Source of the DNA: an uncultured Candidatus Saccharibacteria bacterium
GTDB taxonomy: Bacteria > Patescibacteriota > Minisyncoccia > Phycocordibacterales > CAIZLB01
DNA: 64,000 bases
Direction: 5' to 3'
NCBI GenBank assembly: GCA_964467385.1
Contig: CAYXQC010000003.1
Location: 37,798-101,797 of the forward strand
Numbering within the stretch: position 1 is the stretch's first letter; the number at the start of each line of letters is the position of its first letter. Of the stretch, positions 5,105 to 36,273 are shown piece by piece. Both the position numbers and the translations under genes were made by a program. A model generated the notes under the pieces. That model was not told the origin of the DNA, searched no databases, and saw nothing but the letters and a program-made list of their open reading frames with translations.

Positions 5105-5193
5105 GGAGACGTGTCAGAGTGGTCGAATGTGCCTCTTTGCTAAAGAGGTGGGCCTTTAAAAGGGTCCCGAGGGTTCGAATCCCTCCGTCTCCG
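5105..5193 (+). tRNA. tRNA-Ser (anticodon GCT), class II with long variable arm
   Basis: Acceptor stem GGAGACG/CGTCTCC, anticodon stem CCTCT/AGAGG with loop TTGCTAA, long variable arm, T-arm GAGGG-TTCGAAT-CCCTC, discriminator G. Confidence 0.8.
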
Positions 5194-5221
5194 CCTTGAC
5201 AATTTAGTATCGGCGTGACCC
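5174..5221 (+). repeat. attL-like direct repeat (tRNA-Ser 3' end plus downstream block)
   Basis: Identical 21 bp, then a diverged 9-nt patch and a second 18-bp block (TTAGTATCGGCGTGACCC) matching 18415-18432 at 16/18. Confidence 0.6.
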
Positions 5222-5270
5222 TATTACTCGCGGGAGTAGGGCGACCCACGTACCTACTAGATTGCACAAA

Positions 5271-5301
5271 ACACCAAGAGAATTCTCTTGGTGTTTTGTT
5301 G
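5271..5301 (+). terminator. Rho-independent terminator-like hairpin downstream of tRNA-Ser
   Basis: ACACCAAGAGA-ATT-CTCTTGGTGT followed by TTTGTTG. Confidence 0.5.
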
Positions 5302-5317
5302 TTTATATAATTATGAA

Positions 5318-6004
5318 ATGAATTTTGGGAAAGCTATTAAAACCATCACTAAACTTCTCAAGAAAGAAAAGCCTAAAACATTTAGCAGTTCTTGGATTTC
5401 TACCCGTTCTCCTCTCGTATATCACTTCATCAGAGTTAACTTTAGAACCGAAAATAACCACATAGACTGGGACAAGGTCACAGCGGCCCTCGATCCTAAG
5501 TATGCAAAGTGCTGGATGCGTTACAAACGCAAGGTTGCCAAGCCTTACGAGAATCAGATAGAGGTGGATATCATACTTACGAAGTACAAAGACAAGCTCT
5601 ACACCTTTGTCGCTCTTGTTGATGATGGTGATAAGGAAACAAGGAATCAGCTGATCATCGCTCTTGTCCGAATCGCCCAGAAAGGAAATATTCTCGCTCA
5701 ATTAGAACTTACGAAGTGGCTGAAGTATGTCGTCGATGATTGGGTCGATAAATATTACCCGCTATTTAAATGGAAGGGTTACACCGATGACATTGAAGAC
5801 AAGATCCATGGCTGTATTCGCTGTTACAAATACACCGGATCATTTCTTGGCTACTTGTTTAAAACGCTCGAATATTCTGGTCGTGGCATACGACCCCTTC
5901 AAGCATGGTCGCTTGATAAGAATGTCGGTGATGACGGTGCAACGATGATTGATTTCGTTGCTCAGGATAGTGAAACGGGAGAGGTGAAGTTGTTCGGGAG
6001 GTAA
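5318..6004 (+). CDS. Hypothetical protein (island cargo). Start probably at the internal ATG at 5318 rather than 5288, which overlaps the terminator.
   Basis: ORF track; no recognised motifs. Confidence 0.35.
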   Translation: MNFGKAIKTITKLLKKEKPKTFSSSWISTRSPLVYHFIRVNFRTENNHIDWDKVTAALDPKYAKCWMRYKRKVAKPYENQIEVDIILTKYKDKLYTFVALVDDGDKETRNQLIIALVRIAQKGNILAQLELTKWLKYVVDDWVDKYYPLFKWKGYTDDIEDKIHGCIRCYKYTGSFLGYLFKTLEYSGRGIRPLQAWSLDKNVGDDGATMIDFVAQDSETGEVKLFGR

Positions 6005-6023
6005 TTATTGATACTCGCTCTGT

Positions 6024-6866
6024 CTAAATTATTCTCCCGTCAATTTCGTGGAATAGATTACTGACCATGATAAGGCGACCGAGCGCATCGTGGTGCGGAA
6101 GTTGATCTTCGTCGCCGTGGCTAAGATTGTTTCTCCACCAGTGCATAATACCCATGGTGGTGAGCTTGAAGCCGAGTTGCTTATTGATCTCCTGCGGTGT
6201 TGATAGAGCGTTGAACTTTATTTTCGGGTTCTGTTCACTGAAAACAGCCGCCATCAAATCAGGTCCTTGCTTGTCATGAGTGCTTGTAAGGTCTTGGACC
6301 GTCTTCTCGAACCTTTCAAGAGCTTTCCTCACTGACTCGTTGATATGACCTTCGATGAACATCTTTTTGCAGTCAGGAAGAAGTGAGGGATGAAGAACGT
6401 ATGCATCCAAGATTTTCTGAATCGCTATCGGAGGCGGAACTGTCTTCGGTCTTTCCTTTGGAAGATTCATTGCCACAATTTCTGATTCAAGATCAATGTT
6501 GAGAGCCTTAAGTCGCGCTGAGAGTCCAAGAGCTTCAGCTTCCAATACGGGATCGCCTTTCTCGTGTCGCTTTTCTATCGCCTTCGGTAGCATCTCTCGC
6601 ACGAGGATTTTTATAGTTCTCGGCTTCTGGCAGTAAAGATTTCGCAGGAACTCGTAGAAAGATTCCTTTTTGTTGGCCGCCTTGGCGGGAAGATATTTCG
6701 ACAGACCCCTTTCTTTAGCAATGGTCGTCAAAGAAAAGGAGCTTCGGAATCCCGAAAGAGCAATGAGCTTCCCGAGCTGTTCCGCGAGTGCGCGGATTGC
6801 CTGAGTCTGCGGTGCTGTGACAGTTACTCTTTTCTTCGCAATCTTTTTCTTGGTTTTCTTTTTCAT
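6024..6866 (-). CDS. Hypothetical protein with a basic N-terminus and a C-terminal HEPN-like Rx4H motif. Possible Abi/toxin-like RNase domain.
   Basis: N-terminal MKKKTKKKIAKKR; C-terminal WRNNLSHGD fits the Rx4-6H HEPN signature; 4-nt gap to the upstream Zn-ribbon gene. Confidence 0.35.
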   Translation of the reverse strand: MKKKTKKKIAKKRVTVTAPQTQAIRALAEQLGKLIALSGFRSSFSLTTIAKERGLSKYLPAKAANKKESFYEFLRNLYCQKPRTIKILVREMLPKAIEKRHEKGDPVLEAEALGLSARLKALNIDLESEIVAMNLPKERPKTVPPPIAIQKILDAYVLHPSLLPDCKKMFIEGHINESVRKALERFEKTVQDLTSTHDKQGPDLMAAVFSEQNPKIKFNALSTPQEINKQLGFKLTTMGIMHWWRNNLSHGDEDQLPHHDALGRLIMVSNLFHEIDGRII

Positions 6867-6869
6867 AAA

Positions 6870-7400
6870 TTATTTGGTCGTGTGGACATGGAATCCGCAG
6901 GCTCGGCAGATTCCGTTTATGTTGGCATCTCCGTTTACGTGGAATTCAAAGTTTTCCTTACCGCAAACAGAGCAAACAACTCGACCGCCACTGCGTTTCG
7001 TGGCATCAATCGTATCCAGTATGTCTCTCACGTTCAGAACGTATTTGTTTACCTGTTCACGGTCGTTCAGGTATCCCTGCACCCAGAGATTCGTTGTGAT
7101 TCTTCCTGCAGATGTTTCCTTGTAGTGAATCTTTCCCTCGTTCAGAAGTTTCTCCCAGTACTGCCGTGTCTTGCCATATTCTCTAGCCACATCGCCAGAA
7201 GACATGAGTGAGGCGTTATGGGGAATATATCCCTGATTTTCCATATTTTCTACGCAGGCTCGGATGCCTTCAGCGAGCGCACTCTCTTTTTCCTCCTTGG
7301 AAAATTCGCCAGTCAAATCAACACCGAGGCTCAAAGTGCCACCACTGCTTGTGTTGGCGTGCCAATAGAATTTTCGTTTGTCGTCTTTGGTTGCAGACAT
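6870..7400 (-). CDS. Hypothetical protein with C-terminal CxxC...CxxC zinc-ribbon
   Basis: CSVCGKENFEFHVNGDANINGICRACGFHVHTTK at the C-terminus; co-transcribed orientation with 6024-6866. Confidence 0.4.
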   Translation of the reverse strand: MSATKDDKRKFYWHANTSSGGTLSLGVDLTGEFSKEEKESALAEGIRACVENMENQGYIPHNASLMSSGDVAREYGKTRQYWEKLLNEGKIHYKETSAGRITTNLWVQGYLNDREQVNKYVLNVRDILDTIDATKRSGGRVVCSVCGKENFEFHVNGDANINGICRACGFHVHTTK

Positions 7401-7538
7401 GGCATAAGTATATGCTTGTTGGTTTCTAAATGCAACCAGTTATCTAATACACACGATGTATCAGATAGTATTAGTTTGTATCAGATTAATACGGCTATAA
7501 GGTATGTAGCCGATTACGGCGGATTACAGCCGAAAGGC

Positions 7539-8888
7539 TTATTCCTTCACCAATGTCAGCGTTTTATCCTTGTATATAATTCTCGATCGCAGATTGGCCA
7601 ACAGCTCCCGCTTCTCACTCGTCATGCCTTCCTTGAGGATGTACTTGGCGTAGTTTCGGATATCGGTATCCTTGTCGGTCTTTATCTTCTCCGTTGCTCC
7701 AAGCACAGATCTTTGGAATATATTGTATCGATTTATCTCCTCCTCAAGCTTCTGCCTCATGCCAAGCTCGTTGATGTTCACCTTGTCGAGAATTTTCAGA
7801 AGTTCAGTAATCAGTTCTTCTTCACGAATATATTTGTTCTTGCAGTTTCGGTCCCTAGCTCGTGAGCATGAGTAGTAGATGTAGCGGTTGGCACCTCCGT
7901 CCTTTAGTTGCTTCCATTTCTCCTCAGCCGATATGCCTGATTGGCAGTATCCGCATGTGAAGAGTTTGGTGAAGGCGAACTCCTTCGTTTCTCGCACGAT
8001 CTGGTCGCGCTTCAACTGTGCTTTCGTTTTCTCGAACAGTTCTTGAGTGATCAAGGGCTGATGTTTTCCCTGATACCAGTTGCCGCTTTCCCTTGGTCTT
8101 TCAAATATTCCGTAGTAGAAGGGATTCTCTAGGATTCGATACACACCACTCAGGGTCAGAGGTCTGTTTCCACGTGTATGGAAATTCAGCTCGAACCTCA
8201 TCCAGTTGTATACCTTTCTTCCAGACCATTGCTCATATGCAACTTTCTCGAACATCTTCTTGATGATTGGCGCTCTCTGCGGATCCACAAGCACCTGACC
8301 TTTCTTGTCCATATGCTTTTGATTGAGATATCCAAGCGGTGCCGTTCCGACCCATAGTCCCATCTCGCATCGGGTTCTTAGTCCTCGCTTCACGTTGATG
8401 CCTCGATTGTCATTCTCCAATTTTGCTTGGCTACACAGAATCATCAGCATGAACTTGTCGTTCGGGCTGTTGGTGAATCTTTGGCCGTAGGTGCGGATGT
8501 CCTGCAGATAATTTCCGTCCATAAGATCGATCACTTTTCCGAGATCGCCTGCGTTTCTTGAAATACGGTCTGGTGCCCACGTCAGGATGCCGTTAAACTT
8601 TCCTTGCTTGATCTCATCCACGATCTCATTGAAGACGGGGCGCTGCCCAGTCTCCTTAGCCGAGTGCGATTCTCGCTTCATGGTCACGATCTCCAATCCT
8701 TCTCTTTCTGCCAGTTGGAGCATCTCATTGATCTGGCTATCAATGCTCAAAACCTGCCGTTCCTCCGATTCCGTCGACTTTCTTGCGTAAAGGCAGTATT
8801 TCACCTTTACGGGGCTTGCTACTTTGGCCGCAGTCCCTAATGGCTCTGGTCCTTGTATTTTTGTCATACAACACAAGGAATGACGCAA
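7539..8888 (-). CDS. Large serine recombinase (resolvase/invertase catalytic domain + recombinase domain + zinc-ribbon). True start may be an internal Met.
   Basis: N-terminal YARKSTESEE (the catalytic Ser within the Y-x-R-x-S-T motif), an approximately 450-aa multi-domain length, and C-terminal cysteine pairs CGYC...SCSRARDRNC. Confidence 0.8.
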   Translation of the reverse strand: MRHSLCCMTKIQGPEPLGTAAKVASPVKVKYCLYARKSTESEERQVLSIDSQINEMLQLAEREGLEIVTMKRESHSAKETGQRPVFNEIVDEIKQGKFNGILTWAPDRISRNAGDLGKVIDLMDGNYLQDIRTYGQRFTNSPNDKFMLMILCSQAKLENDNRGINVKRGLRTRCEMGLWVGTAPLGYLNQKHMDKKGQVLVDPQRAPIIKKMFEKVAYEQWSGRKVYNWMRFELNFHTRGNRPLTLSGVYRILENPFYYGIFERPRESGNWYQGKHQPLITQELFEKTKAQLKRDQIVRETKEFAFTKLFTCGYCQSGISAEEKWKQLKDGGANRYIYYSCSRARDRNCKNKYIREEELITELLKILDKVNINELGMRQKLEEEINRYNIFQRSVLGATEKIKTDKDTDIRNYAKYILKEGMTSEKRELLANLRSRIIYKDKTLTLVKE

Positions 8889-8959
8889 CTCGCCCCAAGA
8901 GTCCAGAGCGTCCCGAGTACCTCGAAGTTGGTAACTTTTGCCTGTGGAAAACCCAATAG

Positions 8960-9225
8960 GTGGTTAAGGAAGTTAACCAAAATCGGTAAATTTCGTTAAC
9001 CAGAACTGGTTAACTTTGTTAACACACAAAAGAAAGAGAAATATAGAGAAACTTAGTATTAGGTACAACCTGTGGAAAAACTAGTCTAGTAGGTAGACTA
9101 GTCTAAAATTCAGACTACTTTTGGTCTATTTAGTAGACCGCAAGTAGTCTACGAAGTAGACACACAAAATCTAGGAAACAAAGGGAAACCTAGTATTAGG
9201 GATCGGGTGTGGACAAAGGGTCAAA
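8960..9225. promoter_or_regulatory. Palindrome/repeat cluster upstream of the recombinase gene. Candidate operator or recombination site.
   Basis: - Four GTTAAC-containing palindromes, including the 20-bp GTTAACCAGAACTGGTTAAC at 8995-9014.
- A 23-bp palindrome CTAGTCTAGTAGGTAGACTAGTC around 9081-9105.
- Further GTAGAC/GTCTAC half-sites to 9172.
- About 37-bp imperfect direct repeats (ACYTAGTATTAGG...TGTGGA.AAA) at 9049-9087 and 9187-9223 bracketing them. Confidence 0.4.
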
Positions 9226-9531
9226 AGCCACGACCTCTTTCCTTAATTTCTCAAAATCTCTGAAAACCCTGTTGTATATCCTTATGACTTTTCCTTTGCG
9301 CTTCTTGGTATCGCCATTCTCAAGAAAATCGACGAGGTCATCGTCGATGAAGGAAGCGAGAGAAATGTATGAGGCGACCAATAGCCTAATCCGCTCCCTG
9401 ATCGCCATCTTCAGATGCCTCTTTGACTCAGGCAACTTTGAGATACGGTTAAAAGGAGTAGAGCCTGTTGGCTCATGGTATTTGAAATGCTTTGAGGCTT
9501 CTATGATTGCTTCGATATCATCGTCTTTCAC
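9196..9531 (-). CDS. Hypothetical small protein (island)
   Basis: ORF track only; acidic/basic mixed, no motif recognised. Confidence 0.3.
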   Translation of the reverse strand: MKDDDIEAIIEASKHFKYHEPTGSTPFNRISKLPESKRHLKMAIRERIRLLVASYISLASFIDDDLVDFLENGDTKKRKGKVIRIYNRVFRDFEKLRKEVVAFDPLSTPDP

Positions 9532-9634
9532 CCCCTAACTGATGACGCTGTTCGCAAAGCCTGTCTAGACCCCTCAAAAGTCTCGAGGTTGGTAACCGAC
9601 TACACAAATTCCGATATGTAAGTTATGGTACTAA

Positions 9635-10633
9635 ATGCCTCTAAAAATGCTTCACTTAAGGTCGTTTTTATGCTTTAATATAGCCATTATGGAATTAGTT
9701 CGACTATTCAAAAATCTTACTAAAAACGATGCTGCCATTGCAGGTGGCAAAGGAGCCTCTTTAGGTGAGATGTCCCAAGCAGGAATCCCGGTCCCTCCGG
9801 GATTTGTTGTATTGTCGGAATCCTTCGAGCAATTTCTTCGAGAAACTGATCTTATTCAGGAAATTGATGCAATTCTCGATAACTTAAGTCACAAGGAGAT
9901 TCATCTAGTGGAAGCAGCATCAGAAAAAATCCGCGCACTTATTCTTTCCAAAGAGATGCCGAAAGATATTGCAACTGAAATAAGTAAATCTTCCAAAGAA
10001 CTTGGTTCAGAATTTGTAGCCGTACGATCGTCGGCCACTGCAGAGGATGGCCAAGATCACTCATGGGCAGGTCAACTCGAGTCTTATTTGAACGTAAAAG
10101 AAAATGATGTACTTAATAAAGTTAAGCACTGTTGGGCTTCGCTCTTTACCCCACGTGCAATCTTTTATCGTTTTGAAAAAGAACTTCACACAACAAAGAT
10201 TTCTGTGGCGGTTGTGGTGCAAAAAATGGTTGATTCAGAAATTTCTGGAATTGCATTCTCGGTTCATCCTGTAACTGAAGACAAGAACCAACTTATTATT
10301 GAAGCAGGATATGGATTGGGAGAAGCAATAGTGTCGGGATCGATTACCCCCGATAGTTATGTGGTTGAAAAAGAACCTCGGAAAATTCTCGATATCAATA
10401 TAGCAACACAAACCGAGGCACTCTATAAAAATACGGCGGGAGGAAATACATGGAAAAACATCCATGAACCAAAGGCAAGCTCTCAGGTATTAAAGGAGGT
10501 TCAAATTCTTGAGCTTGCTGATATAATTTTAAATATCGAGAAACATTACGGATTCCCCTGTGACATCGAGTGGGCGTTTGAAAGCGGAAAGTTTTATATT
10601 GTGCAAAGCAGACCCATTACTACATTAACTTAA
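9635..10633 (+). CDS. PEP-synthase / pyruvate-phosphate-dikinase N-terminal ATP-binding (PPDK_N) domain protein. Forms the N-terminal part of a rifampin-phosphotransferase-like enzyme.
   Basis: AIAGGKGASLGEMSQAGIPVPPGFVV and VAVRSSATAEDG motifs are typical of the PPDK_N nucleotide-binding domain. The ORF ends at an in-frame TAA three codons before the next ORF. Confidence 0.7.
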   Translation: MPLKMLHLRSFLCFNIAIMELVRLFKNLTKNDAAIAGGKGASLGEMSQAGIPVPPGFVVLSESFEQFLRETDLIQEIDAILDNLSHKEIHLVEAASEKIRALILSKEMPKDIATEISKSSKELGSEFVAVRSSATAEDGQDHSWAGQLESYLNVKENDVLNKVKHCWASLFTPRAIFYRFEKELHTTKISVAVVVQKMVDSEISGIAFSVHPVTEDKNQLIIEAGYGLGEAIVSGSITPDSYVVEKEPRKILDINIATQTEALYKNTAGGNTWKNIHEPKASSQVLKEVQILELADIILNIEKHYGFPCDIEWAFESGKFYIVQSRPITTLT

Positions 10634-10642
10634 ATCAAATTT

Positions 10643-12181
10643 ATGAATACAAACATCGAACAATTATTACAAAAATATACATTAACTCCCGATTTACTCA
10701 CTGATCCATTGATGAGTCTTGATATGGCTAAACTTGGGGACGACATCACTTCTTTTAAAGAAGAAGGTCTTTCCCAAGGATTTATTCGTCGTCGCATCGT
10801 GCTTTTTATGGATGGCTATCGATATTCGCTTCGTGCAGCAGAAAAGAGATGGGGTATTGATTTTGGATTTTATGAAACTGGAAAAGAACCAGTGAAGAAA
10901 GTATATTTTTCAGGAAAATTTAACGATAATGCAGCCGTGGTTTGGTTACAGAAGATGAACGAAGATAAAGACTTTGGAAATAATCTCGTTGAAGAACTCA
11001 AGACAATAATTGAAATGGAGAAATACTTGGCCGCTTCTGTCTCACAAACAGAACTGTCTAAGGAACAAATTAAAAAACACTTGGAGAATCATCTTTCGTG
11101 GTGGATTCAATTTTTTGAATTTGGATTTCTGTGGTTTTGTGCAGAAAATATTCAACAAGACACAAACGCAAAAATAGAAAAGATCTGGAAAGATACACCA
11201 GAATCGCTTAAGGAATTTCTTGAGGGTGTTTACAGACCAATGGACTTACCTGTATCAAGTGTAGAACAGCGAGATATTCTTGATATCAGCCAATTACAAG
11301 GAGAGGAACTTGAAAAAGCGCTCGACGCCCATTGGAAGAAGTACAAGCACCTATCTCTCCATAATATTGATGATGAGCCTTTTGATAAGGACTACTATGT
11401 AAGTCGAATTAAATCTCTACAAAAAGAAGGAGAATATGCAAAACAAAAAGACTTATTAACCCATGCTGATGCAGAAATTGGTGAAGCGACAAGCCTTCTC
11501 AAGGGTGCGGATATTCCAGAGGAACTAAAAAATAGAATCGAGTTTGTTCGCTGGTTCATGTTTCTTCGAACTGAATCGGTCGACAATATGATGCTAGTGA
11601 ATTCCTCATACAGACATGTATTCGATTCTCTATCAAAGTTATTTGATTTACCGATAGAGGCAGTACTCAATATGACATACAAGGAAATATTTGAGAGTCT
11701 TGAGGCTGGTAAACTTACTCTTTCTAAAGAAGTTATACTGGATAGATTAGAAAATGGTTATGCTTACTTTATTGGATATCGAACTGAAGCATTGCTTACT
11801 GGAGATGATAGACAAAAACTTATTGATATCCTACATCCTGCAACAAACGAAGAAATTATTAAGGAAATAAAAGGACAGATTGCATACAAAGGTAAGATTC
11901 AAGCGATAGCACGAGTCATTCTTGACCGAAAAAATGCTTCCGAGCTACAAGAAGGTGAAATTCTTGTGACCGCCATGACATCTCCAGACTTCGTGCCAGC
12001 CATGAAGATTTCAGCGGGAATCATTACCAATGAAGGAGGAGTACTGTGTCATGCCGCTATCATGTCTCGCGAACTACGAAAGCCTTGTGTTATAGGTACT
12101 AAGACGGCTACCGATATAATAAAGACTGGGGATTTGGTTGAATTAGATGGTGATACTGGAATAATTAAAATTCTAAGCTAG
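10643..12181 (+). CDS. PEP-utilising-enzyme mobile (swivel His) domain protein. C-terminal part of the same RPH-like phosphotransferase.
   Basis: C-terminal GGVLCHAAIMSRELRKPCVIGT is the PEP-utilizers phosphohistidine domain signature, at the extreme C-terminus as in rifampin phosphotransferases. Same reading frame as 9635-10633. Confidence 0.7.
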   Translation: MNTNIEQLLQKYTLTPDLLTDPLMSLDMAKLGDDITSFKEEGLSQGFIRRRIVLFMDGYRYSLRAAEKRWGIDFGFYETGKEPVKKVYFSGKFNDNAAVVWLQKMNEDKDFGNNLVEELKTIIEMEKYLAASVSQTELSKEQIKKHLENHLSWWIQFFEFGFLWFCAENIQQDTNAKIEKIWKDTPESLKEFLEGVYRPMDLPVSSVEQRDILDISQLQGEELEKALDAHWKKYKHLSLHNIDDEPFDKDYYVSRIKSLQKEGEYAKQKDLLTHADAEIGEATSLLKGADIPEELKNRIEFVRWFMFLRTESVDNMMLVNSSYRHVFDSLSKLFDLPIEAVLNMTYKEIFESLEAGKLTLSKEVILDRLENGYAYFIGYRTEALLTGDDRQKLIDILHPATNEEIIKEIKGQIAYKGKIQAIARVILDRKNASELQEGEILVTAMTSPDFVPAMKISAGIITNEGGVLCHAAIMSRELRKPCVIGTKTATDIIKTGDLVELDGDTGIIKILS

Positions 12182-12183
12182 AT

Positions 12184-13026
12184 ATGAAAGAGTCTTTTCC
12201 AAACAATTCCGACGCTATAATCACCAGACATTCTATTCGAGGGGAAAACTCTGAATATGAAGGGCTGTCACCAGAAGGTATTGAGAAAGCAAAAGAAAGG
12301 GCAAAGGATTTCGTGGAAATTATTGAAAAATCTGAACCAGGTACGGTTATATTTTTTGGCGGTGGTTCAACAGAAGCTCGAACAACCTCCACTTTGGAAG
12401 TTTATGTGGATGAAACAAAAAGCTTGTTAAAAGAGAAAGAGGGTGTCTTGTTTTTCGATCAGGAATCAATATCAGAAAAAGCACAGCGTGGTCACCTGTC
12501 CGCAGCAGAAGAGCTTAAAAAAGAAGCAGATGATAATCCTGAGGCAAAAGTAGTTGTAGATCTACCGCTTGTTATTAAGGATTTTCTTAAAGACGAATGG
12601 TGGTATGAGGAAGATGGAACGGTTAAAGAGCCGTGGCAATCTTTATTAGATAAACATGGGAAAGATTACTCATCCATAGTTCGAGACTGGTTTGAGACTC
12701 AGGGAATGTATGATGGTGAGCAAAAGGTTCCTAAACCTATTGAAGTTGCTGAAAGCTATCTAAATGGAATTAAACGATTACAAGGTTTTGTTAGAAAGTT
12801 TTCAGGAGATAGGAACGTTAAAGTTGTAGTTGTCGGGCATAGCATTCAGATGGATGCTTTACTTACTTATTTGGCAAATGATGGGGTTGTAGATTTAGAA
12901 GGATTTGAAAATATCGGAGACAAAGTTGTAGATACAACTGAAATGTCTGTTATTGAACCTGATGAAGATGGAGGCATTCATCTTTCTTATAGGGGTAAAG
13001 AGTTTATTTTTGGAGAAAATCAATAA
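12184..13026 (+). CDS. Histidine phosphatase superfamily (phosphoglycerate-mutase-like) protein
   Basis: N-terminal ITRHSIRGEN (RHG-type catalytic motif) and VVVGHS later; start 2 nt after the preceding stop. Confidence 0.55.
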   Translation: MKESFPNNSDAIITRHSIRGENSEYEGLSPEGIEKAKERAKDFVEIIEKSEPGTVIFFGGGSTEARTTSTLEVYVDETKSLLKEKEGVLFFDQESISEKAQRGHLSAAEELKKEADDNPEAKVVVDLPLVIKDFLKDEWWYEEDGTVKEPWQSLLDKHGKDYSSIVRDWFETQGMYDGEQKVPKPIEVAESYLNGIKRLQGFVRKFSGDRNVKVVVVGHSIQMDALLTYLANDGVVDLEGFENIGDKVVDTTEMSVIEPDEDGGIHLSYRGKEFIFGENQ

Positions 13027-13031
13027 ATAAT

Positions 13032-15128
13032 CTAAATCCCAATATATGGAAATTGGGGTAAGTCATCTTCCTCAAAATCTTCCTGCTGTGCTGGTCTCTG
13101 AATAATTCTCTTGTCTTTTGCAATAGTGAGTACAAGCGCATCGGGAATAGACGAGTCGATACCTTCTTCAGTAAGTTCATCTCGATCAATCATTTTTCTC
13201 TTGCCATTCGTATCGGCATAAACCATGTACAGAAGATCATCGAAGACATGTCTCCCTACAAGCTTTCCAATCCTTAACCATCCTGTCAGTTTTGAATATG
13301 CCCTCGCCCAATTGTCGGCAAACAGGTTGCCATCAAACTGTGGTTGCTCATTCATAGTGATTCCGTACCGTTGTCGATTCCCATATTTGTTGATGTTGAA
13401 ATGACCAACTGCGAGATGTCTCAATAGATTGCACAATTCCTGCCCTCGATCTGCTTTGTCGATAAAAATGTTCTCGTCCGATATCGGCACGTCATGTATC
13501 TTTGCGAGTTCGATAACTTTTAAGACGACTGTCGTCACATCCTGCATCGGCTCATGATACAGAACCTCAGCCGCATTCTCAGCTCTAAGCACGATAGTTG
13601 AGTAAGTCCTGTTTTTGTCTGCCAACACCACTCCCAGTCTTTTGTCTCCGAAATACGAAACCCTTTCCTGATAGCTGTCATTAAGAAGTCTTTCATCAAA
13701 GAGTGCATGATACCCCTTTGGTATATTCGATTCCTGATCCATCATGCTCCATACGAGGATGCAGAATGCATCTGAAAGGTCATCGTGCTTTTCCGTGCCA
13801 AAGCCCACGAGCTGTTCGATCAGCTTCTCAGCGCCATATCGAGGGAAGAGCACTGTTCCTGATTGAATGTGGTGTGAGATGAGTGACAGTCTAGCTCGCT
13901 TATCCGATCCTTGAGTCTTGTATTCCTTTGCGGGAAAGTTTTCCGATTTCAGATGGTCGATGATCGACTTCTGGTATCCCGCGTTCTCGATCCATACGTG
14001 TGCGTTTCCTAAAGTCTTTGACAGCGACTTAATCTTCTCAATCGTCTTCGGGAAATCCATTCGCTCGTTCACAGGATTCGGCAACACATAAATCTTCAAT
14101 GCCTTCTTTCTGCCGTATATCTTTCCTGAAACCATCGCTGTATAGTCCGCATTGTCCTTCTCGCTGATTGCGGGATCAATGCCGGTAGCGGTGAACCGAC
14201 ACGCATCAGCAGGCAGTGAATCGTAATATCGTATCCATTCAGGACGAATTACTTGATCATCATCTGCAATAATCTGGAGCATGTATTCTCTCTGCCATGC
14301 TTGAAGGCTCGGTACTGATTTTCTCAAAGTTTCTACTTCAGCATCCGTTCGGTACTTGTCCTTCCATAAAGGCTGATTATTCTCATCAAGGAATGGATAC
14401 GCCCTTGCAACGCCATCCATTCGACCTTCGAGAATGGCTTTCTTCAATCTCATGATGATCGAATCGTTATGAAGCTTCGTGCCGATCACAATTAATCTCG
14501 TGTCCTTGTCTCCAAGAGGAATGATGTCTCCCATAAGCCAGTTGAACATCTTGTCTCGACTCTCTTGGGTTTTGACGATATCCAAATCCTCAAGGTCGTC
14601 AGCAATTATCAAATCTGGCCTATGCGCCCCGTGCTTGATACCTCGAATCGAGTTATCGATTGAAGCTACTGTCACTCTCGCTCCGTATTTCGGCAACACG
14701 ATTGATACCGCACGCCACTCATCATTCGGCTCCTCGAATGGTCCGAGGTCTAATCTAAGTAATCGGTTGTGCTCAAGCTCCAGTTTGATGTTTGCAAGAT
14801 ACTGCCGTGCTTGACTTTCGGTCTTGGCGATAATTAAAACAAATTTTCTCTGCTGCATTCCGAGGATAGACCAGATCGCATAGGAAGTCCCCATGATCGT
14901 GGTCTTTCCTGATCCTCGGAATGCTTCGATAACCATGGTCTTATGAGACGCTTCGGTGAGTTCAAACAATTCCTTATGAAATTGCGCCGTCTTGTATTTA
15001 ACATAGTGGGAAAAGTAGATGTGGAAGAACCAGTGATGACAGGCTCTTGTAGTCGCACGCCTCACTCGTTGATTCTTAACTATCTCATCAATCTTTTCTG
15101 CCGATACTTCGGTGTCGTGGTTATGCAT
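13032..15128 (-). CDS. Phage terminase large subunit-like protein (ATPase + nuclease)
   Basis: Walker A EAFRGSGKTT after an N-terminal extension of about 60 aa; Walker B-like LIIADDLED; approximately 700-aa length; immediately preceded by a small HTH protein with overlapping stop/start. Confidence 0.6.
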   Translation of the reverse strand: MHNHDTEVSAEKIDEIVKNQRVRRATTRACHHWFFHIYFSHYVKYKTAQFHKELFELTEASHKTMVIEAFRGSGKTTIMGTSYAIWSILGMQQRKFVLIIAKTESQARQYLANIKLELEHNRLLRLDLGPFEEPNDEWRAVSIVLPKYGARVTVASIDNSIRGIKHGAHRPDLIIADDLEDLDIVKTQESRDKMFNWLMGDIIPLGDKDTRLIVIGTKLHNDSIIMRLKKAILEGRMDGVARAYPFLDENNQPLWKDKYRTDAEVETLRKSVPSLQAWQREYMLQIIADDDQVIRPEWIRYYDSLPADACRFTATGIDPAISEKDNADYTAMVSGKIYGRKKALKIYVLPNPVNERMDFPKTIEKIKSLSKTLGNAHVWIENAGYQKSIIDHLKSENFPAKEYKTQGSDKRARLSLISHHIQSGTVLFPRYGAEKLIEQLVGFGTEKHDDLSDAFCILVWSMMDQESNIPKGYHALFDERLLNDSYQERVSYFGDKRLGVVLADKNRTYSTIVLRAENAAEVLYHEPMQDVTTVVLKVIELAKIHDVPISDENIFIDKADRGQELCNLLRHLAVGHFNINKYGNRQRYGITMNEQPQFDGNLFADNWARAYSKLTGWLRIGKLVGRHVFDDLLYMVYADTNGKRKMIDRDELTEEGIDSSIPDALVLTIAKDKRIIQRPAQQEDFEEDDLPQFPYIGI

Positions 15129-15558
15129 GGTCGATTGTAGTTAATCCGAGAGCCTCACGCACCATCTTTTCTTCTTGAGGAGTGAGAGCTTCTTCCTCTG
15201 CGGTCTTGGTGGTAAGTTCGACCTTGTTTCTATACTTAGGATGATGCTGTCTGAGCCACAATTGGATTGCAGGAAAATTCTTTTCCTTGATGAGTGTAAT
15301 GAGCTGACTTTCGGAAAGATCATTGATCATTTCCTCGCCGTCCTGCATGGCCTCGTCAGTCGCTTTCTTGAATTTCGCATCATCACGTCTCCATCGGTAG
15401 TAGGTGCTACGACCAATATTGCTTCTCTCACATGCAATCTGCACGATCGGTATCTTTCGGAGCTGTTCCAAGACGACTTTCTGTTCAACTTTGTTTCTTT
15501 TTAGGGTTGATTCTCTTTTCATAATTTCATTGCTTTTAAGTTTGTTAATTTTTCCCAT
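15121..15558 (-). CDS. Small HTH DNA-binding protein. Probable terminase small subunit.
   Basis: 145 aa; helix-turn-helix IACERSNIGRSTYYRWRR; 8-nt overlap with the terminase large subunit start. Confidence 0.4.
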   Translation of the reverse strand: MGKINKLKSNEIMKRESTLKRNKVEQKVVLEQLRKIPIVQIACERSNIGRSTYYRWRRDDAKFKKATDEAMQDGEEMINDLSESQLITLIKEKNFPAIQLWLRQHHPKYRNKVELTTKTAEEEALTPQEEKMVREALGLTTIDHA

Positions 15559-16349
15559 CTAATAATTGCGGTCTGTACGTACTCGGGATCAAGCTCTATG
15601 GCGATACATGCTCGCTTGGTCTGCTCGCACGCCAATAGACATGTTCCAGAGCCAAGAAAGGCATCGTAAACGACATTGCCAATGCGAGTGCTATTGAGGA
15701 TGAGATGTCGAATAAGTGGCACAGGCTTAGTCGTAGGGTGGAATGGACTCTTGTTCGGCTTCGGATGAACGATGACACTCTTGTCTTTTGATTTTAAGAA
15801 TTCATGCGTTCCATACCATCCGTATGCGATGAGTTCATGCATCGGTGCATAATCCATTCTTCCAACCACTGCTTGAGTTTTCACCCACACAATCAATTGA
15901 GCGAATTTACAGCCGATTGATTTCATTCCGTCACGCAAGGCGAATATCATCTTGTCGGAGTTGAAGATGTACAGAGCATTCTTCCGTTCAAGATGTGGAG
16001 TTACCGCACTAAGCCAGTCTTCAGTGAACTTCTTGTATTCCTCGTCAGACTGAAGGTGATCATTCTCAATCTTCTTGCCTTTGAGCAATGCTTTAAAGTT
16101 CTGCTTGCTCTCCGCAACCGCAACTCCGTAGGGCGGATCGGAAATGATTGCCTTAATTTTTCTTTTACTAACCACCCTTGAGACGAACTCCTTGTCTCTC
16201 GAATCACCGCAAGCAATCGTGTGTTCGCCAAGTTGAAAGATGTCTCCCGCCTTAATTGAGTTTTGTGACTTTTTCATTTGGAGAGAGTTGTCTAAAGCGG
16301 TTGATAATGAGTTGGCAGAATATCGGTTCCATTTCGCAGAGATACGCAA
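15519..16349 (-). CDS. DNA N6-adenine/N4-cytosine methyltransferase (N6_N4_Mtase family). Real start probably the internal Met near 16277.
   Basis: IISDPPYG catalytic motif and C-terminal FLGSGT SAM-binding motif. Confidence 0.75.
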   Translation of the reverse strand: MRISAKWNRYSANSLSTALDNSLQMKKSQNSIKAGDIFQLGEHTIACGDSRDKEFVSRVVSKRKIKAIISDPPYGVAVAESKQNFKALLKGKKIENDHLQSDEEYKKFTEDWLSAVTPHLERKNALYIFNSDKMIFALRDGMKSIGCKFAQLIVWVKTQAVVGRMDYAPMHELIAYGWYGTHEFLKSKDKSVIVHPKPNKSPFHPTTKPVPLIRHLILNSTRIGNVVYDAFLGSGTCLLACEQTKRACIAIELDPEYVQTAIIRWEKLTNLKAMKL

Positions 16350-17538
16350 TGCGTTTCAACTGTTCGCACGCTGACAGGATGCTTCCTGATCCGCCAGTAA
16401 TATCGAGGACGATATCACCAGGGCGACTACACCTACGCAATGCTTTCTCATGCAAGGTAGGAGGCTTCTGTGTCGGATGTGCATATTCCTGTGACGGCAG
16501 TCGCTTCACGAGCCAGATATTGAGCATGTCTAGAATATCCTCGACTAATCTGTTGCCAGTCGTGGTTTCTTTGTTCAATACTTCATTGAGATTTTTAATC
16601 TTGTCAGACAAGTAAGGTTTTCCTCTCGTGCCGTATACGCAATATTCGGTGACCTTGTTGAATGCCACCTGCGGTGTCGGGGAAGCATTGTCTTTAACCC
16701 ACAAGCAGAGTCGCTTTGAATCGATACCAAGCTCCTTGTAGAGTTCTTGGAATAGCCAAACGTATCGCTCATCGCACCAGAAGAAAACGTGAGCGTCTGG
16801 CTTGGTCACGCTCAATGCGTTTTGGATAAGTGTCTTTGCGAATGTTTTATACTCGTCATCCGTTTTGCTGTCGTCAGTTGTTCCACCATATTTAGCTTTA
16901 TTGCCGACACCTTTGTCATACGAGAGACCGATGTTGTATGGAGGATCGGTATTGATCATGTCGGCAAGATTTTCATTCATGAGAAACTTGATCATGTTTT
17001 GATCTGTAGAATTGCCGCAGAGAAGTCTGTGGCGACCGAGAGCAAAGTAGTCGCCGAATTTTATATCGGTTTCCTTTATTTTCTCCAACTCTTTTTCCTC
17101 ATCGAAGTTGTCGTCACTCACTTCGAGATTGTCATCAAAGATATTAGTGAGATCGGTTGAATCAAAGCCTGCCATGAGCAGGGTGTCGATGTCGAAGTCG
17201 CTCGCCAGTATCTCCCAGTCCCAAGAGCCGCCTGAACGATTGCTTGTTAATAAATATTGTTTGAACTCAGAAGGGGTGAGCTTGCGATTCGGTGTTCTCA
17301 CCTCGATTTCTTCTTCACCTCGACCTAGCAGTTGCAGCGCTTTGATGCGCTGATGGCCTGCGACGATCTTTCCGTCAGTGTTGATCGCAGGAAGCTCTGC
17401 AAGATTGAACTTCTTCAAGCTTTCCTTTAAGTCTTCCATCTGCTTGTCCGTGATTTTCCTCGGATTCTTCTCGTAGGGCAGAAGATCGTTTACCCGGCGC
17501 TTTTCGGTACGCCATACCAGTGGTGTTAATTTGGACAT
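16252..17538 (-). CDS. ParB-like nuclease domain fused to DNA methyltransferase (phage-type ParB-MTase)
   Basis: N-terminal ParB/Srx-like region (KITDKQMEDLKESLKKFNLAELPAINTDGKIVAGHQRIKAL), INTDPPYN catalytic motif, C-terminal DITGGSGS SAM motif. Confidence 0.75.
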   Translation of the reverse strand: MSKLTPLVWRTEKRRVNDLLPYEKNPRKITDKQMEDLKESLKKFNLAELPAINTDGKIVAGHQRIKALQLLGRGEEEIEVRTPNRKLTPSEFKQYLLTSNRSGGSWDWEILASDFDIDTLLMAGFDSTDLTNIFDDNLEVSDDNFDEEKELEKIKETDIKFGDYFALGRHRLLCGNSTDQNMIKFLMNENLADMINTDPPYNIGLSYDKGVGNKAKYGGTTDDSKTDDEYKTFAKTLIQNALSVTKPDAHVFFWCDERYVWLFQELYKELGIDSKRLCLWVKDNASPTPQVAFNKVTEYCVYGTRGKPYLSDKIKNLNEVLNKETTTGNRLVEDILDMLNIWLVKRLPSQEYAHPTQKPPTLHEKALRRCSRPGDIVLDITGGSGSILSACEQLKRIAYLCEMEPIFCQLIINRFRQLSPNEKVTKLN

Positions 17539-17599
17539 ATATATTTACGGTTATTAATAATAGGCACAGTATGCGTTCCACAACTTGATCTAAATGTAG

Positions 17600-17775
17600 G
17601 AATTACTCTTGCTCCTCACTTAATCATGCGTGTGAAAAAGTGATTTTTGTGTTGCATTACTCTTCTGTCCTGAGACAATGGTAAATCCCAAAAAGTGACA
17701 AATCGTGGTGCATTACTTTTGCCATCCATAATGCTACTCGTGAAAAAATGCAAAAAGGTGTGCATTACTTTCTCT
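17600..17775. repeat. Periodic iteron-like repeats upstream of the ParB-MTase/terminase operon
   Basis: Four copies of ..TGCATTACTYTT / ATTACTCTT at 17603, 17656, 17712 and 17764 (spacing 52-56 bp). The three downstream copies at 17630-17664, 17690-17720 and 17739-17772 are preceded by AAAAAGTGA-type blocks. Confidence 0.45.
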
Positions 17776-18172
17776 ACCCAGAATCGTATGCTGGCCAACG
17801 TATCCGATTAGTGGGTATTGAAAATGCTACTGGATAAAAAACGTGTAAAATCGTGCGGAATCAATTTCACTTTCTTATCCTCTAAAAGCGTAGCGGACCC
17901 GAACCCTTCTGTCTGGGGGAATTACCTGGCAGAGAATGAATATGAAAATCAGTCCAGCAATCCTCTGAAAATATGCAAAATCAAAATGGCACACTGCTTT
18001 GGCACAGTGTGCTGTTCCAATACCTCTGAAATACCCTTATGTTGCTTGGCGAAAGATGTCGAAACCATCCTTACGGGGCTTGTTTGAAACACTGCCCCTG
18101 CGTGTGCCAAATTGTGCCAATTTGGGAAAGGGAGACCCCGACCCACGAACCCCAAATTGATCAGTCCAAATA

Positions 18173-18229
18173 TGCTAAAATACCCTTACAAGGTCTCACC
18201 CATGGGGTACTTAACCCACGATGCCCGCA
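18173..18229 (+). repeat. Copy A of a 57-nt duplicated block with an extended -10 promoter-like start
   Basis: TGCTAAAATACCCTTA ... GGTACTTAACCCACGATGCCCGCA; followed by hairpin ACCAGTTTTAACTGGT. Confidence 0.4.
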
Positions 18230-18384
18230 TTGACGATACGAACCAGTTTTAACTGGTGAGTGTCGGCAACTTTCTGATACAGTAGGAAGCGAAGCTTTTG
18301 GGGATTCGAAAAGGTTCTCCCATATTTTCGAGAATGAGCGTAGCGAGTTTGAGAAAATGGGAAACCTGTACTGAAGCTGTAAGC

Positions 18385-18432
18385 TTCGAATCCCTCCGTC
18401 TCCGCATTAAGAACTTGGTATCGGCATGACCC
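18385..18432 (+). repeat. attR-like direct repeat (displaced copy of the tRNA-Ser 3' end, no 5' half)
   Basis: TTCGAATCCCTCCGTCTCCGC identical to 5174-5194; no complementary T-stem or acceptor 5' strand upstream. Confidence 0.6.
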
Positions 18433-18438
18433 GAGTGC

Positions 18439-19080
18439 CTAAGAAACCTTCTTAAATACCAAATCACCCGAGATTCTATCTTCGGTGTTAGGTCGCTTCC
18501 AAAGAAATATATTTTGAGTAAATTCAGTAGGATTTTGAATTTCTGAGGCTGAGTGATTGTAAATATTGATTCCTCGCCCCTTCATCATCTCGATTATTCT
18601 TGGTTCAAATTGCTCTAGTGATACGAAAATACTTTGTCGTGCCACTCTCTCAAATTCCTTCGCTAATTTTTCCCAATCCTCAATAAAGTAAAGGGAACTG
18701 AGTGCGATGATGTGGTCTACAGATTTATCCCTGAAAGTTTCAATGACATCCTCGACAGCCCCGATATGTCCCTCAAAACCTCGCTTTTTTGCCTCCTCAA
18801 TCATTGCGGGCGAAATATCAATTCCTTCGTATGTAAATGAGTCACCTAAATATTTCTTGAGCTTTCCCGTACCACAACCAATATCGAGCAAAGTTCCCTC
18901 GGTTATTCCATATTTTTGATATGTTTCCAGTAGAATTCTTGGAATCTGATATTCAGCTTTTCCTTCAAAGGATTCGTCGTAGACTGATGCGGCCTCGTCA
19001 TAAAAAAGGGTCACATTCCTCCTCTGTGTTTCAAGTTCTGTTTTTTCTGGACTTGGCGGTATTTTTTCCATATCTATCAT
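18439..19080 (-). CDS. Class I SAM-dependent methyltransferase
   Basis: LDIGCGTGKL motif I and DISPAMIEEAKKRGF; 213 aa. Confidence 0.6.
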   Translation of the reverse strand: MIDMEKIPPSPEKTELETQRRNVTLFYDEAASVYDESFEGKAEYQIPRILLETYQKYGITEGTLLDIGCGTGKLKKYLGDSFTYEGIDISPAMIEEAKKRGFEGHIGAVEDVIETFRDKSVDHIIALSSLYFIEDWEKLAKEFERVARQSIFVSLEQFEPRIIEMMKGRGINIYNHSASEIQNPTEFTQNIFLWKRPNTEDRISGDLVFKKVS

Positions 19081-19142
19081 ATTATCGCTAATGGCAAGAT
19101 TAGACTAGTGACCCACATACCTAATTTCAGTCTCAAAAAACT

Positions 19143-19199
19143 TGCTAAAATATCCTTAGGGGGTTTCGCCACTCTGGTACCTAACCCACGATGCCCGCA
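19143..19199 (+). repeat. Copy B of the same 57-nt block
   Basis: TGCTAAAATATCCTTA ... GGTACCTAACCCACGATGCCCGCA; same spacing as A with a 17-nt variable middle; followed by perfect hairpin GGACAGAATTTATTCTGTCC (19212-19231). Confidence 0.4.
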
Positions 19200-19309
19200 A
19201 CGATTCGCGAGGACAGAATTTATTCTGTCCGATGCGGAGCGTATCTTGGACATGATAGGTTGATGAGAAAGACGGAGCGGATGAGGCGAGCATCCTGTGC
19301 AGCAAGCCT

Positions 19310-20119
19310 CTATTTCAAAGCCTTTTTGATATTCTCTAGCTGAATTTCTACATCCTTCTCTGTCATATTTATATTTTTATCAAGATTTTTCAATATAATA
19401 GCCTCCTCCTTTGTGAGATTTCTGACACCTTTTGTATTTTGCAAGAGCTCTACAGTCATTTGCACATTATCCCGTAAAGCCTTGAAGCTCTTATGCAGGT
19501 GAATTTCTGTCTTTGAAACATCGTTTCTTATTTTTCTTCTTAAGGTGAAAAGCTTGGAAGCAAGGAACCATCCGAAGGCAATCAGGCACGCCAAAGTCGA
19601 CAAAATTATTATTCCAATTCCTAAATAATTTATTACGAGGCCCCCTATTCTAAACAGAGCTTTTTGCTTAACAAGGATTGTCACTGGCACTGTCTGTTCG
19701 CTTTTCGCTCCCCTTCTATCTTCTACAAGAGCTGTCATTGAATAGGTTCCTGGATCAATTTTTTTCGTCCAGATTAGCGCAAAGTCCCCCGAATCATTTG
19801 TCTCTATTGACTGGTATTCTATTTTTCCATTTTTGTCTTTCAGATAGACGGTTACTGTCGTATTAGGGTAAGAAGTTCCTTTAACTTGAAAAACTTCTCC
19901 TACTTCAAGTTCTTTCGGGTAATCGATCAATTTTGGGCTTGCTATCGCAAGAATACTGAAGTCAGCGGACTGGACCGTAGAATTTCCAGCCTTATCAACT
20001 GCTTTAACCAAAATACTGTGTTTTCCTGGATTCAAGGCAGGAGTTACATAAATTGTAGATGAAGCCTCAGAGTTTATGATAATGCAGGAAATTACAGTGA
20101 AAAGACAAAGATCATACAC
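19310..20119 (-). CDS. Membrane-anchored protein with an Ig-like extracellular region and a C-terminal coiled-coil
   Basis: ORF track; beta-rich N-terminal region, TM helix GIGIIILSTLACLIAFGWFL, charged C-terminal tail. Confidence 0.35.
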   Translation of the reverse strand: MYDLCLFTVISCIIINSEASSTIYVTPALNPGKHSILVKAVDKAGNSTVQSADFSILAIASPKLIDYPKELEVGEVFQVKGTSYPNTTVTVYLKDKNGKIEYQSIETNDSGDFALIWTKKIDPGTYSMTALVEDRRGAKSEQTVPVTILVKQKALFRIGGLVINYLGIGIIILSTLACLIAFGWFLASKLFTLRRKIRNDVSKTEIHLHKSFKALRDNVQMTVELLQNTKGVRNLTKEEAIILKNLDKNINMTEKDVEIQLENIKKALK

Positions 20120-32143: not shown

Positions 32144-32284
32144 ATGGTGGTCACGGATATTTTCTTGCTACCCGCTCTAAAATTCCTCGACCCTAGCTCG
32201 TCTATTTTTCCTACTGGAAAAATATGACTCCGCCTCGCCAAAAGTAAACAAAAACCCAGACTGCTCTGGGTTTTTGAATCTTTG

Positions 32285-36026: not shown

Positions 36027-36037
36027 GTAATACAAAA

Positions 36038-36060
36038 GGCCGACCTGCGTCGGTTTTTTG
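36038..36060 (+). terminator. Terminator hairpin after tmRNA
   Basis: GGCCGAC-CTGC-GTCGG then TTTTTT. Confidence 0.5.
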
Positions 36061-36182
36061 TATTACCTAGTTTGAGAGAGACAGAGAGACGAGAAAGGCG
36101 GAGCTAATGTCGATTCAGCAGACGAGACAGCGAGCCGGGGTCGCGGAAATTTCTGAGCGATGGCGAAGAAATTATCTGTGAC

Positions 36183-36202: not shown

Positions 36203-36273
36203 CAAATAAAATAACCACCTTACGGTGGGTATTTTATTTGTACTGATTCTATGGCTTTCAAGAAAAGATAACC

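Follow-up and report, generated by a model that had tools for sequence, protein, structure and literature searches.

A large serine recombinase element at tRNA-Ser genes of Patescibacteria and a neighbouring element that duplicates tRNA 3' ends

Serine integrases, much-used tools in genome engineering, are generally considered to avoid tRNA genes; those that have been characterised mostly target protein-coding genes. The phage-type large serine recombinases (LSRs), e.g. SPbeta SprA/YokA and the integrases of TP901-1, A118, phiC31 and Bxb1, have a Resolvase/Recombinase/zinc-ribbon architecture; their genes lie at one end of the element next to the element's attachment site, attP, and they recombine at a very short core. 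An LSR with this architecture and gene position is encoded in the DNA analysed here, a stretch of 64,000 nt (the window) from an uncultured Candidatus Saccharibacteria bacterium (contig CAYXQC010000003.1, positions 37,798 to 101,797), where it is part of an element that we call E1. The core of E1 appears to be CCGC. Short cores are the norm, as illustrated by the common core of 8 bp in a mycobacterial serine-integrase prophage (PMC9303363). The present LSR differs from the phage-type enzymes in its target, which is the 3' terminus of a tRNA gene, and in the left half of its attP, which mimics a tRNA T-arm.

A few serine-integrase elements at tRNA or tmRNA (t(m)RNA) genes have been described. 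In the TIGER/Islander survey 14 of 297 serine-integrase islands used such genes, a use that 'has not been reported previously' and that needs experimental proof (Mageeney et al. 2020, PMC7192596). These cases share with ours the combination of a serine integrase and a tRNA attB, whereas the elements described here belong to one very large, coherent family that has conserved arms and is tied to tRNA-Ser throughout a superphylum. The tycheposons of Prochlorococcus and other marine bacteria have an LSR in place of the tyrosine recombinase in 27 of 937 cases (bioRxiv 10.1101/2020.12.28.424599). Tycheposons are likewise small elements that accrete in tandem by tRNA genes and carry partial tRNA copies, and some are similar to phage-inducible chromosomal islands (PICI-like) with terS. 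Tycheposons are overwhelmingly tyrosine-recombinase elements; ours occur in Patescibacteria, with the partial tRNA copy in a separate structured element. In Lactobacillus, the 3' end of tRNA-Ser is reported as the integration site of phage mv4, whose integrase is of the tyrosine family (bioRxiv 10.1101/2023.11.06.565760), the same kind of target for an enzyme of unrelated family and chemistry.

In the window, the LSR gene lies between two copies of a tRNA 3' end. A preliminary description held that the type of recombinase contradicts this integration signature. The contradiction disappears on closer analysis, as the long repeat does not appear to be the attachment site of E1, the ends of which share only CCGC. 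E1 was probably mobilised by its own LSR integrase, with the long repeat stemming from a separate tRNA-3'-end-duplicating element (TDE, a name coined here) next door.

The recombinase and its tRNA-Ser target

The open reading frame (ORF) at 7539-8888 on the minus strand (449 aa) matches the Pfam families Resolvase (E 2.5e-18, residues 33-177) and Recombinase (PF07508, 8.3e-13) and, C-terminal of the Recombinase domain, the zinc ribbon Zn_ribbon_recom (PF13408, E 1.9e-9) with the cysteine pairs CGYC...CSRARDRNC. It contains a catalytic-serine motif of the YARKST type, YARKSTESEERQ, so that both the motif and the zinc-ribbon tail noted in the preliminary description are present, and it matches PHROG 95 ('integrase') at E 3e-60. 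By domain criteria the gene encodes a genuine LSR. Its start is likely the ATG that gives 442 aa, since a 100% identical database protein (P0001) has the same length. The nearest relatives of solved structure, the SPbeta integrase (E 2.6e-10) and the TP901-1 integrase, are distant (E about 1e-10).

Relatives of this LSR are abundant. A protein search gave at least 8000 matches, the best 120 of which are all at least 83% identical. Among GTDB species representatives 172 relatives were found; the best 80 have 77-99% amino acid identity and are nearly all labelled as Patescibacteria or candidate phyla radiation (CPR) lineages. LSR copies that are 97-99% identical turn up in different genomic contexts.

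The loci of these best 80 of 172 relatives were compared (comparison loci and contigs carry labels such as L001), and a profile of motif A, a conserved part of the element's right arm, was run on 85 sequences. A tRNA-Ser gene lies downstream of the LSR gene, on the opposite strand and with its 3' end facing the LSR, in 52 of the 80 loci. The conserved arm is found downstream of the LSR in 68 of the 85 sequences, and in 48 of these 68 it abuts a tRNA-Ser gene called by ARAGORN (22 GCT, 14 TGA, 5 GGA, 5 'ACT' and 2 CGA). The stop codon of the LSR gene is only 77-114 nt away from the motif A arm in 18 loci. LSR, arm and tRNA-Ser form one module, and the LSR is therefore not incidental to integration.

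ARAGORN called tRNA-Ser genes with the unusual anticodon ACT in L016, L040, L054, L059, L074 and L078, often beside a tRNA-Ser(GCT), and several of these 'ACT' genes are occupied by LSR elements. In L016 (13299-13356, plus strand) an empty tRNA-Ser(GCT) has its last 23 nt together with 15 nt of flank tandemly duplicated (38-nt unit), which could have arisen by slippage or be a minimal footprint.

Two small genes near LSR genes are candidates for a directionality or regulatory factor. One is a 111-aa ORF upstream of the LSR (9196-9531 of the window, minus strand) that is kept in 7 loci. The other belongs to a Giovannonibacteria-type element (L091-L096; e.g. L092 9657-9860), in which a small, excisionase-like HTH_17/MerR gene is divergent from the LSR and adjoins a type III-like restriction-modification pair.

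Joints, ends and gene content of E1

The ends of E1 were placed by comparison with its relatives. Across loci the right arm consists of three variable bases, motif A GACAATTTAGTATCGGNGTGACC, a hairpin and motif B GCGACCCGAGTNCC; changes in the hairpin stem between loci look compensatory (judged by eye, no formal test). Homology of the window element to L002 begins at 5191 in BLAST alignments, and homology to L003 ends at 18229, right after a CCGC. The window element and those of L001 (in a tRNA-Ser(TGA)) and L002 are near-identical up to ...CCGCC (up to CTCCGCC in the window and L001), and the T-stem and acceptor sequences to the left of it differ; in the window and in L001 the tRNA 3' strand pairs with the T-stem 5' strand of its own tRNA, which is well formed. 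The CCGC joint recurs in 71 junctions. These homology breakpoints and the intact tRNAs of five isoacceptors point to the last 4 bp of the tRNA and speak against an unusually long shared core, which the preliminary description had considered for this recombinase family.

Motif A that does not follow a tRNA follows instead a left arm of element type, which likewise ends in CCGC. The commonest of these alternative partners is D1, a block of ~60-90 nt composed in order of TGCTAAAAT (extended -10-like, TGCTA(A/T)AAT), the T-arm mimic GGGGTACTTAACCCAC, N6 and CCGC. The mimic, GTGG-GTACTTAAC-CCAC-N6-CCGC, is in register with the real T-arm. Of 21 occurrences of D1, 19 are in other loci and two in the window (18168-18228, 19138-19198). 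D1 is followed either by unrelated DNA (attR), as in elements of 7.9-13.5 kb in L021, L029, L031, L047, L059 and L072, or in tandem arrays directly by motif A in an attP-like junction; L044 and L064, which share a 348-kb contig, are examples. Behind the tRNA of L012 come three more junctions, the left arm of which is of a different, psi type.

In seven complete elements (7.9-13.5 kb) attL and attR have only CCGC in common, and in most elements the three bases after it differ between the two. In the window attL reads ...GTCTCCGC/CTTGACAATTT and attR reads ...GATGCCCGC/ATTGACGATACG (a slash marks the joint here and below). The comparison of attL and attR with homologous elements, suggested as a check in the preliminary description, thus agrees with its statement that serine integrases leave few shared bases. 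Since the bases flanking CCGC usually differ between attL and attR, the crossover should lie within CCGC at the tRNA 3' terminus, a normal short core for a serine integrase. The crossover dinucleotide is probably CC, because GC and CG are palindromic and palindromic crossover dinucleotides are what an LSR should avoid. E1 thereby extends over 5195-18228 (13,034 bp). Its right end is 177 bp inside the one assumed before, the 21-bp tRNA copy falling in the TDE, and the suspicion voiced in the preliminary description that the boundaries might differ has proved right.

Other origins of the joints were considered and rejected. The classical model, a crossover in the T-loop, does not agree with near-identical elements that sit in tRNA-Ser genes with different, well-formed T-stems and acceptors, and psi-type left arms would then break the tRNA. 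A crossover at the three bases after CCGC was dismissed because attL and attR differ there in most elements. Carriage of the tRNA by the element does not fit homology to relatives that begins at the tRNA 3' end, with host genes upstream. Target-site duplication by a transposase was discarded for three reasons: the repeats are of variable length (15-22 nt), a transposase is missing, and TDEs are also found where there is no element. Upstream of the LSR in the 80 loci there are almost no exact tRNA-end repeats, because attR carries D1 and not a tRNA copy; this supersedes the idea that the elements are merely longer than the flanks.

E1 is phage-derived. Its backbone (13032-17538), comprising the terminases and two DNA methylases, recurs with the LSR in 11-32 other loci. 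Among ten ORFs tested none had a structural PHROG match that would indicate virion genes, and E1 may equally be a satellite-like (PICI-like) element or a decayed prophage. The operon at 9635-13026 is found in no related element, has a host-like GC content of about 38% and encodes a PPDK_N ATP-grasp protein, a PEP-utilizers swivel-domain protein and a histidine phosphatase; it gave no PADLOC match. The cargo space between arm and LSR (5318-7400 in the window) is absent in 18 loci.

Concerning tyrosine recombinases, no Phage_integrase match was found in any annotated ORF of the island or in the alternative-frame ORFs scanned, which made up most of those of at least 80 aa, nor at E<=10 in the five ORFs without a confident match and five alternative-frame ORFs. 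The profile search proposed in the preliminary description therefore returned none, in keeping with its remarks that no tyrosine recombinase is visible and that the LSR is the only recombinase between the repeats. The largest non-coding gaps in the island measure about 330 nt and are therefore too small for an integrase pseudogene. Six related neighbourhoods that were inspected had no tyrosine recombinase either. The coordinates of all features are given in Table 1.

Table 1. Features of the window, with coordinates, strand and supporting evidence
Feature	Coordinates	Strand	Evidence
tRNA-Ser(GCT), target gene (attB-left = T-arm + acceptor 3' strand)	5105-5195	+	ARAGORN; Rfam tRNA 52.5 bits at 5105-5193
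attL joint CCGC (last two acceptor-stem bases, discriminator G, C74)	5191-5194	+	homology start, shared run
Right arm (attP-right)	5195-5257	+	conserved directly after tRNA in about 50 loci
Motif A of right arm (CTTGACAATTTAGTATCGGCGTGACCC)	5195-5221	+	
Right-arm hairpin	5219-5241	+	
Motif B of right arm	5242-5257	+	
Intrinsic terminator behind tRNA, element-supplied	5266-5299	+	terminator scan: 15-bp stem + T tract
Cargo, unknown gene	5318-6004	+	gene call
Cargo, Hypoth_Ymh/HEPN-like, defence candidate	6024-6866	-	Pfam; PADLOC PD-Lambda-3_B and Aga_HEPN
Cargo, unknown gene	6870-7400	-	gene call
LSR (integrase), 442 aa	7539-8867	-	Pfam, PHROG, motif, database match
Variable cargo operon (PPDK_N, PEP-utilizers, His_Phos_1)	9635-13026	+	Pfam; GC about 38%
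Terminase large subunit	13032-15128	-	PHROGs, Pfam
Terminase small subunit	15121-15558	-	PHROGs, Pfam
DNA methylase	15519-16349	-	PHROGs, Pfam
ParB-methylase	16252-17538	-	PHROGs, Pfam
D1, element left end (attP-left)	18168-18228	+	conserved block; homology to L003 ends 18229
attR joint CCGC	18225-18228	+	
Presumed native tRNA 3' flank (attB-right), displaced by insertion	18229-18284	+	inferred
TDE	18285-18405	+	fold z = -3.0; nhmmer core match 18301-18397; 3' arm 18385-18405
LSR-less unit, 793 bp	18406-19198	+	joints, repeat D1
Short-form right arm, ATT-AAGAACTTGGTATCGGCATGACCCGAGTGCC	18406-18443	+	
S-adenosylmethionine (SAM) methyltransferase	18439-19080	-	
B-like motif	19110-19125	+	
Second D1 copy, ends CCGC	19138-19198	+	
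TDE, further occurrence	32149-32235	-	
tmRNA	35586-36027	+	Rfam 74.5 bits; missed by ARAGORN
TDE, further occurrence	36084-36202	+	

The long repeat and its explanations

The two copies of the tRNA 3' end, 5174-5194 and 18385-18405, are identical in 21/21 positions and reach from the T-loop to one base past the discriminator of tRNA-Ser. The direct repeat extends to 48 nt at 88% (5174-5221 versus 18385-18432), so the 21 identical bp and the further block reported before are both real. By a rough estimate, about 5e-4 exact 21-mer repeats are expected by chance in 64 kb.

The second copy is the 3' arm of a TDE. TDEs are ~120 nt long. They begin with the acceptor and T-stem 3' strands of the tRNA in reverse complement, continue with TTCGAAA and two hairpins, and close with the last 15-22 nt of the tRNA in direct copy. 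In the LSR-element loci their arms match the tRNA-Ser at the other end of the element, and they stand behind a hairpin-containing spacer that follows D1 (window, L021, L029, L059, L069, partly L047). TDE-type elements (~110-160 nt) were noted in the window and in L010, L021, L029, L031, L050, L051, L058, L059, L069, L071, L089 and L090. They lie directly behind tRNA or tmRNA genes, usually after a terminator, contain internal hairpins of two core types and are sometimes in tandem (L090, L031, L010).

Several lines of evidence separate the TDE from the LSR. The tmRNA gene of the window is followed by a terminator and by the TDE at 36084-36202, which copies about 20 nt of the tmRNA 3' end (..CGTCTCCACA, repeated about 155 nt downstream); no LSR arm was found near it. 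Other loci show this arrangement for tRNA-Arg, Lys, Val and Gly genes. A metagenome pattern search for 'tRNA-Ser(GCT) 3' end, 140-170 nt, same 3' end' yielded two Patescibacteria-like contigs (L089, L090) on which tRNA-Ser(GCT), terminator and TDE are contiguous with no element between; the second TDE of L090 is 95% identical to the window TDE over 44 nt. Copies of at least 11 nt of a gene's own 3' end were found 40-400 nt downstream of 11 of 99 t(m)RNA genes, two or three of these 11 being adjacent tRNA genes with a common 3' end, versus 0 of 92 upstream. The nhmmer matches of the two core types lay directly downstream of a tRNA or tmRNA gene in 12 of 12 cases, including the tRNA-Ile of the window. 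Because TDEs stand behind tmRNA, other tRNAs and tRNA-Ser without an element, and in view of the census and the core matches, the TDE is independent of the LSR system. Most simply, the tRNA-Ser and the TDE at 18285-18405 were native neighbours until the insertion of E1 displaced the TDE by 13 kb.

Rfam gave no match at E<=5 in 17500-19400 (D1 and TDE) and only chance-level matches in 36028-36270. That the 5' arm of the TDE copies the tRNA 5' end was rejected, as the arm complements the discriminator and C74 too and the gene leaders do not match. A tRNA-like 24-mer at 33430-33453 lies inside a 707-aa ORF and was taken as chance. In L088 (6626-6890), a high-GC contig, the duplication of a tRNA-Ser 3' end also takes in about 60 nt downstream of it; the repeat seems to be of another, classical att type and is unrelated to TDEs.

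The similarity beyond the 21 bp is explained by a second insertion. The DNA behind the TDE (18406-19198) is a unit of the same family as E1, without an LSR, which inserted into the tRNA-like end of the TDE; this end is a second landing site because it has the same T-arm/acceptor/CCGC sequence as the tRNA. The 48-nt repeat therefore compares two attL-type joints, tRNA/arm and TDE/arm, and not attL with attR of one element. A similar short-form arm directly follows D1 in L003, and L002 likewise has its element at a TDE-like end, a degenerate one. Short units without an LSR, 0.8-3.8 kb long, were seen in the window (18406-19198) and in L012 (7274-14901), in arrays stacked behind one tRNA-Ser. Such units are bounded by the same joints of left arm, CCGC and motif A as full elements, have a cassette-like layout and may, judging from these joints, be mobilisable in trans. 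The gene-less att-flanked remnants of integrative elements include the cis-mobilizable elements (CIMEs). The LSR-less units of the window and L012 resemble CIMEs in sharing the joints of full elements, whereas the inverted-repeat architecture of the TDE is not found in simple remnants.

As regards its origin, the TDE could be a functional RNA, a decoy site or a remnant of another T-loop-targeting element. In favour of the last possibility, the duplicated segments run from the T-loop or T-stem to the 3' end, the classical signature of integration into tRNA genes. The 21-bp repeat would then be the scar of an older T-loop-crossing recombinase, typically a tyrosine integrase, the TDE a gene-less CIME-like remnant and the LSR element a later arrival. 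The tandem TDEs are reminiscent of accreted remnants, and a terminator after an intact tRNA is what element-supplied replacements often provide. We nevertheless regard this explanation as rather unlikely: neither the scanned ORFs of the window island nor the inspected loci showed a tyrosine recombinase, a 5' arm that is a reverse complement including discriminator and C74 would not be expected of a simple att scar, and conserved internal hairpins are common to TDEs of different tRNAs. It concerns the origin of the TDE only and is compatible with the mobilisation of E1 by its LSR. If the TDE is such a remnant, the 'tyrosine-type signature' would rightly describe a different, older event.

A less probable explanation, to which we give little credence, extends the element to 5195-18405, with the TDE-like tRNA copy as attP-left and an LSR that acts on at least 21 bp of identity between attP and attB. 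The attP would read ...GTAAGC-TTCGAATCCCTCCGTCTCCGC-CTTGACAATTT with the 21-bp tRNA segment, and its junction ...GCTGTAAGCTTCGAATCCCTCCGTCTCCGC/CTTGACAATTT. Copies of the host tRNA 3' end are indeed present at the far side in the window, L029, L059 and L061, and LSR-type right arms are joined to TDE-like ends (window 18405/18406, L002 junction), so that such ends are recombination-competent. Against the extended element, TDEs accompany tRNA-Arg, Lys, Val, Gly and Ser genes and tmRNA without any LSR element, their arms matching the local gene. Moreover, in L003, the closest relative, D1 is directly joined to the next unit with no TDE between them, it is D1 and not the TDE that is conserved among the elements, and the D1-defined attL and attR share CCGC only in all seven elements.

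That a tyrosine integrase moved the island and was then lost, leaving the LSR as a resolvase, invertase or domesticated gene, is highly improbable, for although the LSR of the window lies 2.3 kb from the tRNA and not directly at the end, and the element, lacking virion genes, may be defective, the LSR stop adjoins the tRNA-abutting arm in 18 loci, the succession of LSR, arm and tRNA-Ser recurs in about 50 independent loci and five isoacceptors, near-identical LSR copies occupy different contexts, the domain architecture is that of an integrase and not of a small resolvase, and no tyrosine recombinase was found in the scanned ORFs of the island, which has no room for its pseudogene either.

Several observations weigh against an E1 that was mobilised by its LSR beside an independent TDE. 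The far-side tRNA copies in the four loci just named leave some room for elements that carry a TDE-like left arm. In L037 (1664-1771) the gene abutted by the LSR right arm is 79 nt long, ends in ..GGTCCGC and was typed by ARAGORN as tRNA-Asp(GTC); it is either a rare off-target or a mis-typed tRNA. CCGC contains the palindromic GC and CG, and the choice of a crossover dinucleotide is deduced. The host right half-sites (attB-right) are little conserved, which is unusual for a defined LSR site. The presumed native flank at 18229-18284 has no obvious terminator, unlike the same flank in L021, L047, L069, L089 and L090; in L021, L047 and L069 a terminator-like hairpin stands at the attB-right position. 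Finally, a search via the flanking proteins for an E1-free contig of the same strain gave the occupied arrangement or short contigs only, and the attB of this genome is therefore reconstructed, not observed. A search of viral genomes for a free attP matched four IMG/VR contigs, none of them informative.

Proposed mechanism and significance

From the anatomy of the element and the established behaviour of LSRs we infer catalysis, the exact crossover dinucleotide and the current mobility of the LSR element. LSR dimers would bind attB at the tRNA-Ser T-arm/acceptor (left) and the 3' flank (right), and attP at the D1 T-arm mimic GGGTACTTAACCCAC-N6-CCGC (left) and the right arm NNN-GACAATTTAGTATCGG...GACCC (right). 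The predicted attB is ...CCGTCTCCGC/ATTGACGATACGAACC and the predicted attP ...CCCACGATGCCCGC/CTTGACAATTTAGTATCGG. Strand exchange at a dinucleotide inside the common CCGC would leave the tRNA intact and give attL and attR with only 4 bp in common. In many elements the arm starts with CA, so that after integration the gene would read ...CCGCCA, an encoded CCA end, and the element would supply its own terminator to the tRNA. The promoter-like sequence of D1 is oriented outward across the joint. When the element is circular or in tandem, transcription from it would enter the arm and run antisense to the LSR gene, which could, speculatively, make a state-dependent switch; D1 may give rise to an RNA across the joint or to antisense control of the LSR.

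A keyword search of the literature (Patescibacteria, serine recombinase, prophage) returned nothing, and we found no report of the present LSR family or of TDE-like elements in Patescibacteria. The LSR family is moderately novel, tRNA targeting by serine integrases being rare and unproven. It is a tentative suggestion that, taken jointly, the findings represent the first well-supported case of a serine integrase family that, across a superphylum, reads tRNA-Ser T-arm/acceptor DNA with a T-arm mimic in attP, along with a previously undescribed class of structured elements, the TDEs.

With a coherent and very abundant family that has a defined 4-bp joint at the terminus of tRNA-Ser, it would be settled that tRNA genes can be targets of serine integrases. 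The conserved arms and the T-arm mimic would give ready-made attP/attB pairs for a target sequence that is near-universal in bacteria. For the calling of island boundaries, the window demonstrates that a perfect repeat of a tRNA fragment need not delimit the element between its copies. The TDE, if functional, would be a new tRNA-linked element; as an RNA it could sense or regulate tRNA 3' ends, or it could be a decoy at which integrases land in place of the functional gene. Little appears to have been described about the mobile elements of Patescibacteria, and a family with defence-type and metabolic cargo points to an active route of gene flow in these bacteria.

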